DNA of 43,893 bases from IMG/VR virus record IMGVR_UViG_2645727810_000025, positions 1-43,893 of that record; one strand, given 5' to 3'. Every line of letters starts with the position of its first letter. Position 1 is the first letter of the stretch. The position numbers and the translations under genes are program-made. This document shows positions 5,493-35,352 of the stretch, piece after piece. The notes beneath the pieces were generated by a model, which had not been told where the DNA came from, did not search any database, and saw only the letters and a program-made list of their open reading frames with translations. This stretch comes from a virus (Duplodnaviria; Heunggongvirae; Uroviricota; Caudoviricetes).

Positions 5493-5507
5493 TTACCATT
5501 TTGGTAA
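5493..5507. promoter_or_regulatory. operator-like palindrome TTACCATTTTGGTAA (OL-like site 1)
   Basis: Perfect 5+5 inverted repeat with 5-nt spacer, 14 nt upstream of the leftward operon start. Confidence 0.6.
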
Positions 5508-5703: not shown

Positions 5704-6300
5704 TTACTTGCTTTTGTTCTGCTCAAACACGAAGTTGATGAATGAGGTGATCTTGTTCTTCTCTTCCTGTGGCAGAGCTGCATACATCCGGTGGTCGTAG
5801 TCGATAACACCAGGAGCGCCGACGGGAATAATCATCTCGTATGCTTCATGCCCGAACGCGCGCGCCAGGGAGGAAAGAACACCGATGGTCGTGCTGACTT
5901 CCGCTTTCATAATCCGGTTAACTGTGGCCGGGCCAATACCAGCTGCAACAGCAACTTTCTTTTCGGATGTCATTTCCGTGTTCTTTCTCATCCAGGCATT
6001 GAGCGTGGCTGCGGCCTGCTTCTCTACAGTCCATTCGCCATCTTCAGTGGCCGGAATAAAGATATCAGCCTGTACTGCGTCCAGTTCGTGATCGACATCA
6101 AGCCAGAACTTTTCTTTGCGCGCCGCTTCTTCAATGATACGCGCGGCATTCGGCCCGATGTTTTTGATGCCAGTGCACCACCGGTTGACCAGGTTCTGCG
6201 AACGCTTCACCCGCTCTGCAAAGCGCAACTGGGTGTCATCGAAATCCCGGCGAATGATTTCGTTAAGGTTTTTGCGTCTTATGTCATAAATACTTTTCAT
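5704..6300 (-). CDS. CI-like phage repressor with two Xre-type helix-turn-helix domains
   Basis: 198 aa; N-terminal HTH (TQLRFAERVKRSQNLVNRW...ARKEKFWLD) and a second HTH-like segment (AVAAGIGPATVNRIMKAEV); no S24 peptidase domain; divergent from the Cro-like gene with palindromic sites on both sides; no SD before the ATG. Confidence 0.7.
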   Translation of the reverse strand: MKSIYDIRRKNLNEIIRRDFDDTQLRFAERVKRSQNLVNRWCTGIKNIGPNAARIIEEAARKEKFWLDVDHELDAVQADIFIPATEDGEWTVEKQAAATLNAWMRKNTEMTSEKKVAVAAGIGPATVNRIMKAEVSTTIGVLSSLARAFGHEAYEMIIPVGAPGVIDYDHRMYAALPQEEKNKITSFINFVFEQNKSK

Positions 6301-6455: not shown

Positions 6456-6689
6456 ATGAGTGACGAAAAAAAATTTGATTTCAAAAAGCACTGGCTGGAG
6501 CTGTCTCCTGTTGAGCGTGAAGCATTTGCAGATGAAGCCGGAACCACCAGTCATTACATCCAGACGCACCTGACCGGGCGCCGCAAGATGCCAGGTAAGC
6601 GACTGATGGACGGACTGTTTAAAGCATGTCGTTCCCGCGAATGGACAAAGTCAAAACCTGAATTAGTGCTCTTCTTCTACGACCGATAA
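6456..6689 (+). CDS. Cro/YdaS-like small DNA-binding protein
   Basis: 77 aa; position divergent from the repressor; segment TSHYIQTHLTGRRKMP resembles YdaS/Cro-type HTH proteins. Confidence 0.55.
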   Translation: MSDEKKFDFKKHWLELSPVEREAFADEAGTTSHYIQTHLTGRRKMPGKRLMDGLFKACRSREWTKSKPELVLFFYDR

Positions 6690-22092: not shown

Positions 22093-22697
22093 TGGCCTCC
22101 GTTATCGAGATCTGCAACCGCGCGCTGAGCAATATCGGCAACAGCCGCAGCATAAACAGTCTGAATGAAGCCAGTAAAGAGGCCGGACAGTGCTCCCTGC
22201 ATTATGATGCTTGCCGCGATGCTGCTCTGGCTGATTTCGACTGGAACTTTGCTACCAAGCGCGTTGCGCTAGCTGATACCAATAATCCACCTCCTGACTG
22301 GCAATACGCCTACCAGTACCCATCTGATTGTGTTCGCATAACCGAGATCATGCCGACAGGCATACGCAATCCTACTGCTGAGCAGCGCATTGAGTATGTT
22401 GTCGGTTCCAATGAGGACCTGACAGGTAAGCTCATTTACACCGATCAGCCGAAAGCGTGGTTGAAGTACGTGGCGCGGGTTACTGACGTCAATATGTATG
22501 ACGCCATTTTTATGGAGGCGCTTTCCTGGCGTCTGGCTGCTGCTATCAATATGGCGCTGACCGGTAGCGCAGATCTCGGTAACAACGCACTGACGATGTA
22601 CAACCGCGTGATCCTGAGTGCTGGCTCACATAGCCAGAACGAATCACAGGAGCCACAACCACCGGTAGATGAGTTCACAGCAGCGAGGTTGTCATAA
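22092..22697 (+). CDS. tail tubular protein A-like (T7 gp11-like)
   Basis: 201 aa; size, position and N-terminal pattern (CNRALSNIG...) resemble podovirus gp11; coupled to the following 825-aa gene. Confidence 0.5.
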   Translation: MASVIEICNRALSNIGNSRSINSLNEASKEAGQCSLHYDACRDAALADFDWNFATKRVALADTNNPPPDWQYAYQYPSDCVRITEIMPTGIRNPTAEQRIEYVVGSNEDLTGKLIYTDQPKAWLKYVARVTDVNMYDAIFMEALSWRLAAAINMALTGSADLGNNALTMYNRVILSAGSHSQNESQEPQPPVDEFTAARLS

Positions 22698-33442: not shown

Positions 33443-33739
33443 ATGCAAGCTATTGGTTTCATTGTTTACATAGTTGTTGGTCTTTTTCAGTTGGCTGCGA
33501 TCATGGCTGGTCTTGAATCGTGGTGGGGACTGCACTGGATAGTGGCTGCACCCATTGCTTTCATCGTTAGTTATATCCCGTTGGTCGGTTCCATTGTTGG
33601 AATGGTTGGCGCTGTCGACGTATGGCGTTGGGAATGGTGGCAGGCAGGGCTTCTTTTCTTTGGCGGCCTGGTTTTTGCTATTGCGTGCGGGGGAATGTCT
33701 TCGTTCTTCGAATGGCTATCCTTCAGGAAAAGAGCGTGA
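33443..33739 (+). CDS. small integral membrane protein (98 aa, about 3 TM segments)
   Basis: Hydrophobic Trp-rich sequence; ATG after AGGTGA; stop lies inside the GTGACATGTCAC palindrome. Confidence 0.6.
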   Translation: MQAIGFIVYIVVGLFQLAAIMAGLESWWGLHWIVAAPIAFIVSYIPLVGSIVGMVGAVDVWRWEWWQAGLLFFGGLVFAIACGGMSSFFEWLSFRKRA

Positions 33740-33749: not shown

Positions 33750-33776
33750 AGGCCGCCGAAGCGGCCTTAATTTTTT
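33750..33776. terminator. bidirectional intrinsic terminator
   Basis: AGGCCGC-cgaa-GCGGCCT hairpin followed by TAATTTTTT; between convergent genes. Confidence 0.65.
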
Positions 33777-33927
33777 AACGCCCGCCAGGACGAGAATCGG
33801 CAGAACGACCACCGCAGCGTGATCCATCCGAAGCCGTATCGCTGTCATGCTGGCAGTTTCCAGCAAAAGCTTGTGTAGCAGAACCCAGAGACAACAGAAC
33901 AAACAGCACTGCTAATGCTTTTTTCAT
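33775..33927 (-). CDS. candidate small secreted protein (50 aa), below the ORF-track cutoff
   Basis: My own translation: MKKALAVLFVLLSLGSATQAFAGNCQHDSDTASDGSRCGGRSADSRPGGR; canonical signal peptide with AFA cleavage motif; weak SD. Confidence 0.4.
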   Translation of the reverse strand: MKKALAVLFVLLSLGSATQAFAGNCQHDSDTASDGSRCGGRSADSRPGGR

Positions 33928-33995: not shown

Positions 33996-34685
33996 TCAGA
34001 ACTTACCAGTCATGCTGTTGATGTACTGCACATGAGTCTGGATATCGCGCAGGCATTTACTGGCACCTACGATGTAGCTCATCATGGCCGTGAACTCTGC
34101 TACAGCACCTTCAACATCATGTCCGTCGGCGTCCATCTTCCGCAGCAGGTCCATCAGCATCGATCGCTCCGTCAGGCCAAGAACGCCTTCAGGTGAATGG
34201 ATGTGTTCACGGTAGTTCGGCTTGAGTGGTGCGCTGTATTCCTGTTTCTCTTCCGTTTTCATCGCTTCCAGAATGGCGGGCATGAAGCTGGCCACAACCT
34301 TTTGCGCTTTGTCTGCCGGTGATAATTCTTCACGAACGTAGCGACCGGTGCGACGTATCTGCGGGAGAACTTCGCCAGTTACCCATTTGCGGAAACGATA
34401 GGGGATAGTACCAGGAGTTACCGCATCGCGGCAGCGCAGGATCAGAGTGTAGAGGCCGGATTCAGAGATGATGAGGGTATTAGGGTTCCCTCGTTTTCCG
34501 TCGGTTAAAGCGACGGTATTCTTTTCGTCGTCATCCAATTTAAGCAGAGCATCACGGTTGTTTGATATACCAAGAGCATTACATACATCTAACGCAATAA
34601 ACCATGGCTCGCCGTCGATGATGATTGCACGAATATCGGCTTGCGATTCGAAAGAAAAAACTGAAGTATTTTTTTGAGTTGTCAT
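33996..34685 (-). CDS. phage antirepressor, Bro-N domain protein
   Basis: 229 aa from ATG at 34685 (AAGGTG SD; the track's first codon at 34694 is GTG); N-terminal Bro-N pattern (FSFESQADIRAIIIDGEPWFIALDVCNALGI). Confidence 0.7.
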   Translation of the reverse strand: MTTQKNTSVFSFESQADIRAIIIDGEPWFIALDVCNALGISNNRDALLKLDDDEKNTVALTDGKRGNPNTLIISESGLYTLILRCRDAVTPGTIPYRFRKWVTGEVLPQIRRTGRYVREELSPADKAQKVVASFMPAILEAMKTEEKQEYSAPLKPNYREHIHSPEGVLGLTERSMLMDLLRKMDADGHDVEGAVAEFTAMMSYIVGASKCLRDIQTHVQYINSMTGKF

Positions 34686-34843
34686 AGTGATCACCTTTTA
34701 GTCTGGTTAATCACCACCGGAGGTTCCAATCTCGGAGGTGGTGAACTGTGCAGGGTTGGAACTACCGGCTAAAAGGACCCGGCGCACCTTTCGGTGCCCC
34801 CACACAGCCCACCATAATGCGAATGTGGCCGTGCTTAACGCAT

Positions 34844-34945
34844 AAAAAAACCGCTTGCGCGGTGAATGCGCCTTTTAGTATCCGGGGTTCCAATCCCGGC
34901 ACTGGATTTTGCCAGTGCCTGATCACTATGGCACAAGTATTTTGC
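34844..34945 (-). ncRNA. candidate small regulatory RNA upstream of the antirepressor gene (C4-antisense-like architecture)
   Basis: Minus-strand order: palindromic promoter-like site (34955-34969), then 8-bp stem-loop GGCACUGG/CCAGUGCC, 5-bp stem-loop with loop AUUGGAAC, then CCGC-GCAA-GCGG hairpin plus U7; the loop motif GAUUGGAAC recurs in a hairpin at 34715-34745 in the antirepressor 5' UTR. Confidence 0.3.
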
Positions 34946-34954
34946 GTTGTAAAT

Positions 34955-34969
34955 TTACCGTAAAGGTAA
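34955..34969. promoter_or_regulatory. operator-like palindrome TTACCGTAAAGGTAA
   Basis: TTACC-N5-GGTAA followed by TAATAAG; upstream of the candidate RNA and antirepressor. Confidence 0.5.
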
Positions 34970-35000
34970 TAATAAGCGCATAGTGTATGATATTTCAACC

Positions 35001-35261
35001 TTATGTGGTTTGTCTTCGTAGCTGTTCAACACAGTAATCGAGATGTGTCTGCACATCCTTCATGGATAGCTGTGAGCTGGTGACATAGTTCACCAGTGCA
35101 GTAAGTTCGGCCAGCGGCCCGTCGACGTTGAACCCGTCTTTATCAAGTTCCCGCAATAAAGTCATAAGGTGCGAGTTCTCCACCAGGGATATAACGCCTC
35201 CCGGCGTGTGTACTCTTTCATAAAATCCATCTTCCAGTGGGTGGTGATACCGCTGTTGCAT
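35001..35261 (-). CDS. small protein paralogous to the antirepressor C-terminal domain (86 aa)
   Basis: ATG at 35261 with GGAG SD (the track start at 35279 is TTG); HTPGGVISLVENSHLMTLLRELDKDGFNVDGPLAELTALVNYV aligns with HSPEGVLGLTERSMLMDLLRKMDADGHDVEGAVAEFTAMMSYI of the 33996 gene. Confidence 0.55.
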   Translation of the reverse strand: MQQRYHHPLEDGFYERVHTPGGVISLVENSHLMTLLRELDKDGFNVDGPLAELTALVNYVTSSQLSMKDVQTHLDYCVEQLRRQTT

Positions 35262-35337
35262 TAACCATTCTCCATACAAACACTGTATATATATACATAT
35301 ATCAGATGAACCACTGTTTCACCAGTATGATTTTTAA

Positions 35338-35352
35338 TTACCTGTGAGGTAA
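35338..35352. promoter_or_regulatory. operator-like palindrome TTACCTGTGAGGTAA
   Basis: TTACC-N5-GGTAA followed by TAACT; in the divergent region about 100 bp upstream of the tail fibre gene. Confidence 0.5.

Follow-up and report, generated by a model that had tools for sequence, protein, structure and literature searches.

The question raised by this locus is whether the spacer upstream of a phage antirepressor gene encodes an RNA control element and, if so, which of its parts acts as the regulator and which serve as targets. The window, by which we mean the whole stretch of 43,893 nucleotides that was analysed, is the genome of an epsilon15/phiV10-like temperate podovirus; none of the phage records compared closely matches it over its full extent. 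The gene concerned is ant (33996..34685, minus strand, ATG at 34685), coding for a 229-aa Bro-N antirepressor (Pfam Bro-N, 8e-21; PHROG anti-repressor Ant, 4e-51), and the module described below lies between the injection/tail genes and the tailspike. An earlier note on this DNA had suggested that a short terminated RNA in the spacer is a C4-like effector, controlling ant in the manner of P1/P7 c4 by pairing through a repeated loop motif with the same loop in the ant 5' UTR. We found that the spacer is a complete, ordinary copy of the known phage P1-type RNA switch, whose components, as read from the sequence, are a small RNA of the IsrK type, an antisense RNA of the C4 family and two corresponding sets of target sites, with ant as the predicted gene under its control. 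The note had the right family, as borne out by an Rfam C4 match of 77.1 bits, but it assigned the parts wrongly.

All the features of the spacer described here are on the minus strand, from 34969 to 34685, and follow one another 5' to 3' as a palindrome, a promoter, two hairpins, a terminator with a U7 tract, a structured block, a further hairpin presenting a target site (a2), a Shine-Dalgarno (SD) sequence and the ant ATG. The hairpins, the repeated GAUUGGAAC motif, the U7 terminator and the promoter palindrome pointed out by the earlier note are all present on this strand, as is the second hairpin with the repeated loop, shortly before the ant SD (34743-34712); it had overlooked a second repeat, the C4 element at 34819-34734, and a target site (b2) over the SD together with its complement in a C4 loop. 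An Rfam scan of the whole window at gathering thresholds (GA) recovered exactly two matches, isrK and C4, both in this spacer, and the 281-nt region folds much more strongly than its shuffles (z = -6.7).

The promoter, identified by a promoter scan, is of the sigma-70 type (34925..34953), with the -35 hexamer TTTACA (34953-34948) separated by a 17-nt spacer from a TG-extended -10 hexamer CATAGT (34930-34925), and both hexamers are kept in 70 distinct upstream regions. Transcription is predicted to start at G34918, and the Rfam isrK model begins 7 nt past the -10. The IsrK-like small RNA (34844..34918; Rfam isrK RF01394, 76.1 bits against a GA of 50) is made up of hairpin 1 (34918-34899), hairpin 2 (34898-34883), a spacer and an intrinsic terminator, ACCGC-GCAA-GCGGU followed by U7 (34844..34863), which was recovered by a terminator scan and ends the short form. 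IsrK is an Hfq-binding small RNA, as its family name and the literature have it. The terminated transcript is predicted to span about 75 nt (34918-34844) rather than the roughly 100 nt estimated in the note. In a permissive scan the leader was also recovered by the model for the a1, b1 targets of C4 antisense RNA (c4-a1b1, RF03163) at 34931-34879, with 42.1 bits (E = 2e-9), just under the GA of 46.7. The corresponding P1 leader matches c4-a1b1 with 51 bits and isrK with 35 bits, the latter below the threshold that the window's leader exceeds; hence, IsrK can be regarded as a homologue of the P1 a1/b1 leader. The terminated RNA that had been taken for a C4-like effector therefore belongs with isrK and c4-a1b1, and the real C4 lies downstream of it. 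As the promoter scan found no promoter-like site between the IsrK terminator and C4, both C4 and the ant mRNA need read-through of the terminator, which is a weak one with a 5-bp stem; such read-through has been documented in Gifsy-1 (PMC4825925).

The search with Infernal and the Rfam C4 model that had been suggested as a check was positive: the C4 antisense RNA (Rfam C4 RF01695; 34734..34819, minus strand), a GC-rich element of 86 nt by the Rfam boundaries, covers model positions 1-87 of 87 with an E-value of 1.7e-13 and a score well above the GA of 45, the P1 c4 itself scoring 68.8 bits. Its fold consists of a long outer stem around two hairpins, and in an RNAalifold consensus of 22 sequences, which included those of P1, Gifsy-1 and APSE-7, 10 of the 26 pairs are compensatory. 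By homology with the annotated ends of P1 c4, the mature C4 is predicted to be a 77-nt RNA (34813-34737, GGUGGG...CACCACC), which by analogy may be excised from the longer precursor by RNase P; the putative tRNA-like feature of the RNA would be its acceptor-like stem with a 3' ACC. The resemblance to a tRNA T-loop noted earlier is irrelevant to this: the T-loop-like GGTTCCAATCC belongs to the other strand, and a search with ARAGORN detected no tRNA. Immediately downstream, the hairpin that presents a2 (34712..34743, from the MFE fold) has an inner stem that covaries in 2 of 3 pairs, and a lower stem (CACCACC / GGUGGUG) built on the 3' strand from the outer stem of C4. The CACCACC at the C4 3' end (34737-34743), which is invariant, has two possible partners, the C4 5' strand GGUGGG... 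and the equally invariant downstream GGUGGUG (34712-34718); the same shared-strand arrangement of C4 stem and a2 hairpin is present in Gifsy-1. Since both structures use CACCACC, an unprocessed transcript can form either the C4 fold or the base of the a2 hairpin, but not the two at once.

Examination of the segments left open by these folds revealed two sets of matching sites on the same strand. One antisense segment, a' (GUUCCAA, 34756..34762), lies in the single-stranded junction of C4 and is the exact 7-nt complement of an upstream target, a1 (UUGGAAC, 34887..34893), in the loop of IsrK hairpin 2, and of a downstream one, a2 (UUGGAAC, 34723..34729), in the hairpin loop of the ant leader. 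The other, b' (CCUUUUAG, 34769..34776), occupies the loop of C4 hairpin 2, includes an anti-SD CC, and is the exact 8-nt complement of b1 (CUAAAAGG, 34871..34878) in the single-stranded IsrK spacer and of b2 (CUAAAAGG, 34694..34701), which overlaps the ant SD AAGGUGA (34697-34691) 6 nt before the AUG. The repeated UUGGAAC motifs are, on their pairing potential, the C4 targets a1 and a2 and not effector loops: the two GAUUGGAAC loops, which the earlier note had paired with each other, are identical rather than complementary and so cannot do so, whereas both are targets of the C4 segment GUUCCAA. The string GATTGGAAC occurs exactly twice in the 43.9 kb, both times in this spacer (0.43 expected; 6 of 100 shuffles reach two copies). 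The second repeat, ACTAAAAGG, is found at 34879-34871 and 34702-34694, with three matches in the window against 0.33 expected. A search of the window for further bipartite C4 targets yielded isolated single motifs at 22405, 9100 and 16539, and never a and b together.

Every interacting segment except b2 is predicted to be unpaired, the cost of opening a1 being 0.01 kcal/mol, and each a or b duplex is short, with 7-8 bp and about -7.3 kcal/mol. These values come from per-site opening energies and short-duplex energies, which were used in place of cofolding the whole RNAs. RNAduplex and RNAcofold, applied to the whole C4 against the leader or IsrK, returned unrealistic full-length duplexes or zero net gain; as nested-structure models cannot represent loop-loop contacts, the zero gain from RNAcofold is uninformative rather than negative.

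We then compared 80 IMG/VR loci gathered via the Ant protein (59-96% identity), all of which share the unit of promoter, IsrK, C4 and leader. Across these the a site comes in five alleles (UUGGCGU, UUGGAAC, UUGGUCU, UUUGCAC and UUGAGAC) and the b site in at least seven, CUAAAAGG and CUACAAAGG among them; in every locus a1 equals a2 and both are the reverse complement of a', the b sites behave likewise, and the a- and b-alleles reassort freely among loci. Formal pairing counts were made on 49 distinct sequences. For a1:a', all 343 of 343 cells are standard pairs, with 5 of the 7 pairs changed on both sides and none on one side only; 0 of 500 shuffles reach this score, and slid registers pair at 24-52%. 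The a':a2 helix is paired in 92.7% of cells, the failures being five rows with a one-column alignment shift. In the same 49 homologues covariation further supports IsrK hairpin 1, the terminator and the a2-presenting hairpin. Despite this turnover, b2 ends in the SD (AAGG or GGAG) across the homologues with a sole exception, the locus L046 (IMG/VR UViG_3300045988_040153, about 967-1203), in which the sequence matched by the C4 loop CAUAGUGA is UCACUAUG, placed on the ant start codon and not on the SD. There b1 has changed to match its own C4 loop and the target has moved, to a place where pairing would still be expected to block initiation. The a1/a'/a2 and b1/b'/b2 relations hold also in phiV10, TL-2011b, APSE-7 and Gifsy-1. 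The isrK-C4 unit or related sequence occurs in 330 phage records, more than 190 of them Stx-converting, and hardly any record annotates it. A longer query that includes ant found similar sequence in 826 of 5426 complete E. coli genomes (about 15%).

Based on the family membership, the RNA folds, the exact complementarity, the three-way covariation and the overlap of b2 with the SD obtained here, we consider it very likely that the spacer is an antisense-RNA immunity module of the P1 immI type, which silences the antirepressor. We infer its processing, the translational block, the decoy role of IsrK and the control of the promoter by a repressor, and propose that the switch works as follows. 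A single promoter, beside a probable repressor operator, would fire at about G34918; the weak terminator would stop most transcripts, giving the IsrK-like RNA of about 75 nt that displays a1 and b1, and the read-through RNA would carry C4 together with the ant mRNA. C4 would probably be excised as an RNA of about 77 nt, with RNase P acting at its 5' end as in P1, after which b' in the hairpin loop and a' in the junction could pair with b2 over the SD and with a2 in the leader loop. This pairing would block ribosome binding, so that no Ant is produced and the repressor of the prophage remains active. Ribosome occlusion is suggested by the position of b2, which throughout the homologues stays at the SD (in L046, at the AUG) even as its sequence turns over. 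By analogy with the known C4 RNAs, C4 would thereby repress antirepressor synthesis and set the specificity of immunity. The a1 and b1 sites of IsrK would compete for the C4 segments, in cis as long as the transcript is unprocessed, and in trans in the form of the short RNA; because it bears this competing copy, IsrK in excess would relieve repression as an anti-antisense RNA. In the MFE structure of the read-through RNA, a1/b1 are paired in cis with a'/b'; given this pairing and the other possible base for the a2 hairpin, the outcome should depend on processing and folding. The Gifsy-1 homologue lends this reading experimental support: its published compensatory pairs G28-C162 and G31-C159 coincide exactly with a1 and a', and IsrK given in trans increases the translation of anrP more than 100-fold (PMC4825925). 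Counting against it are the shortness of each duplex and the position of the putative operator, centred near -44.

Other explanations of the locus have to be weighed against the immI-type reading. To the possibility that the region codes for protein, as a 78-aa ORF (34762-34998, minus strand) or a 71-aa ORF (34748-34963, plus strand), we give next to no weight: both frames are open in the window and older phage records carry the label 'similar to hypothetical protein', but they cross the promoter, the terminator and two covarying RNAs. Among 70 distinct homologues, moreover, the ORF length ranges over 26-97 aa on the same strand and 0-81 aa on the opposite one, and with lengths so poorly conserved the dismissal of these two overlapping six-frame ORFs as spurious by the earlier note holds. 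The note's own proposal, that the terminated upstream RNA is the C4-like effector and its GAUUGGAAC loop pairs with the same loop of the 5' UTR, builds on a repeat that is real and specific to the locus. Yet we regard it as very improbable in light of the identity of the two loops, the match of that RNA to isrK / c4-a1b1 rather than to C4, and the occurrence of GUUCCAA on this strand only inside the intervening C4. Fairly unlikely as the main mechanism is transcription termination as with the P4 CI RNA, whereby C4 bound to nascent a1/b1 and a2/b2 would promote or prevent termination, at the IsrK terminator or Rho-dependently in the leader, and translation initiation would not be the primary target. 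The end of b1 only 7 nt upstream of the terminator stem would suit such a mechanism, and Biere, Citron and Schuster reportedly found in 1992 that P1 c4 ultimately lowers ant transcription through polarity. The Gifsy-1 study, too, likened its system to P4 CI, seqA and seqC (PMC4825925). Against it stands the constant placement of b2 at a site of initiation, the SD or, in L046, the AUG; nevertheless, termination could operate alongside the immI-type mechanism.

The remaining alternative is the activation model worked out for Gifsy-1, in which the short IsrK opens a locked read-through RNA so that an orf45-like ORF beginning at the AUG at the 5' end of C4 is translated and coupled into ant, the C4 region working as mRNA and not as a diffusible repressor. 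This model has been shown experimentally at the homologous locus (PMC4825925), and for the read-through RNA of the window the long-range pairing of Gifsy-1, between the middle region of IsrK and a'/b' of C4, is predicted as well. Moreover, the Gifsy-1 study explained activation by orf45 translation and coupling rather than by a C4 repressor, and constitutive STnc1160 did not oppose IsrK (PMC4825925), both of which count against a repressor role for C4. However, whereas the Gifsy-1 ORF of 45 codons overlaps the antirepressor start, the ORF from the conserved AUG at 34815 in the window ends after 17 codons, 76 nt before the ant AUG, and the equivalent ORF has 8-17 codons in 51 of the 80 relatives and in no case extends over the ant start. 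For Gifsy-1, the authors of that study themselves point out that orf45 is conserved in its nucleotides and not in its amino acids (PMC4825925), and the covariation of a2/b2 with C4 is not required by the coupling model, yet is seen. We therefore consider coupling of this kind unlikely in this window.

Returning to the immI-type module, its promoter is associated with a palindrome, TTACCTTTACGGTAA (TTACC-N5-GGTAA; 34955..34969, minus strand), at about -51 to -37. This pattern is the top 5-N5-5 palindrome both in the window, where it occurs 10 times perfectly and 15 times with up to one mismatch against 0.68 expected, and in TL-2011b; a search for it in Gifsy-1 gave none. Sites of the 15-nt palindrome in the window lie at 5493, 5569, 5631, 6355, 6372, 6402, 8549, 12706, 12724, 16535, 34955 and 35338, forming triple clusters on both sides of a 198-aa HTH gene (5704-6300, minus strand; Pfam HTH_3), which faces a cro-like gene (6456-6689). 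TL-2011b shows this pattern too, at syntenic places, with one site just upstream of the small terminase gene. This dispersed family, with triple clusters at the HTH gene and a copy at the IsrK promoter, suggests that the latter is probably an operator of the phage's main HTH repressor; being centred near -44, the putative operator could serve activation rather than repression. The set as a whole looks like the dispersed operators of P1 C1, and the copy upstream of IsrK recalls the C1 operator (Op51/Oc4) carried by the P1 c4 promoter.

The genes flanking the RNA module also merit description. Just upstream is an ORF of 86-92 aa (35001-35279, minus strand; probable start ATG 35261) with its own TTACC-N5-GGTAA at 35338-35352, which is homologous to phiV10p24 / epsilon15p19. 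Its product is a stand-alone copy of the Ant C-terminal domain (43% identity over 75 aa, E = 8e-24; both are phrog_450) and may, on this relationship, modulate Ant. Downstream of ant are a 50-aa ORF with a signal-peptide-like N-terminus (33775-33927, minus strand) and a hydrophobic 98-aa ORF with no Pfam match (33443-33739, plus strand); in the neighbourhood of TL-2011b that matches this downstream region a 'transmembrane anchored protein' is annotated.

Among the closest known systems is immI of P1/P7, in which a promoter with a repressor operator, a probable one in the window, is likewise followed by a1, b1, a terminator-like hairpin, c4, a2 and b2 over an SD. The two share the RNA family and fold, sites of 7-8 nt and the regulation of an antirepressor, and in P1, too, a' (CUGUCAA) is in the junction and b' (CACUAAC, pairing with b1/b2 GUUAGUG) in the hairpin-2 loop, at the same positions of the C4 model. 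They differ in that immI has the icd ORF as its direct target, with b2 covering the icd SD, so that P1 represses ant indirectly via icd translation, a difference of layout that we count against our reading; we found no icd-like ORF between b2 and ant in the window, where b2 covers the SD of ant itself. The Bro-N Ant of the window is set apart from P1 Ant1/2 by name and domain, its specificity is UUGGAAC / CUAAAAGG as opposed to UUGACAG / GUUAGUG, and the host element is an epsilon15/phiV10-like podovirus as opposed to a plasmid prophage.

The isrK-orf45 (STnc1160)-anrP region of Salmonella Gifsy-1 has isrK and C4 matches in the same arrangement upstream of an antirepressor and the same predicted long-range IsrK:C4 pairing, with a different b allele; the Rfam scan of the window found no isrJ downstream of ant. 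In Gifsy-1 (L085, NC_010392, 34076-34316, minus strand) 'orf45' / STnc1160 coincides with a full-length Rfam C4 match of 69 bits, and the reading frame of orf45 opens with the conserved AUG found at the C4 5' end and extends across C4. Numbered from the start of its IsrK, residues G28 and G31 fall in a1 (UUGGCGU, nt 26-32), and C162 and C159 in a' (ACGCCAA, nt 158-164); these form the compensatory pairs G28-C162 and G31-C159 by which Hershko-Shalev et al. 2016 demonstrated an inhibitory long-range helix (PMC4825925). The same study detected the processed, stable STnc1160 downstream of IsrK and makes no mention of P1 c4 or RNase P (PMC4825925), and a 2025 review treats IsrK and c4 as separate systems. 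Mapping the Gifsy-1 mutants onto a1:a' joins two literatures that are usually cited apart. For the APSE phages of Hamiltonella, Rouil et al. 2020 (PMC7313666) annotated isrK and c4 sRNAs beside a Bro-N gene and indicated a' and b', but did not link IsrK to a1/b1 sites in that genome paper. The APSE alleles, UUGAGAC / CUAACAAGG, are unlike those of the window, and we confirmed the a/b matching for APSE-7.

In light of these correspondences we put forward, with a confidence that falls a little short of even, the broader proposal that the IsrK-type and P1-type C4 RNAs are halves of one three-RNA switch, in which the short a1/b1 RNA is a dedicated decoy for C4 and the a/b sites are a modular, freely recombining specificity code. 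Were this so, the code would divide epsilon15-like and lambdoid prophages among many antirepressor-immunity groups, each blind to the others, and the Gifsy-1 'orf45' would in the main be a gene for a C4 RNA. Independently of this proposal, what had looked like a 330-bp 'spacer' filled with spurious ORFs is very probably a compact RNA control unit for prophage induction, and the table of alleles provides natural specificity swaps with which short loop contacts could be tested in immunity between co-resident prophages.

Two further systems offer partial parallels. The CI RNA of satellite phage P4 is, as predicted for C4, a processed small RNA with complementary sequences on both sides (seqA/seqC), and IsrK has been called a structural homologue of seqA (PMC4825925); however, P4 CI acts by premature transcription termination of replication genes, whereas the downstream target in the window is on the SD. 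P22, also a temperate podovirus, has in its immI (sar, ant, arc, mnt) an antirepressor cassette situated among late/tail genes and kept in check by a small antisense RNA; sar lies on the opposite strand of the ant leader as a true cis-antisense RNA, whereas C4 lies on the same strand as its targets and would act through short loop contacts. Relative to these systems, the known family and its principle are unchanged, and what is new here is a locus with an allele pair of its own, UUGGAAC / CUAAAAGG.
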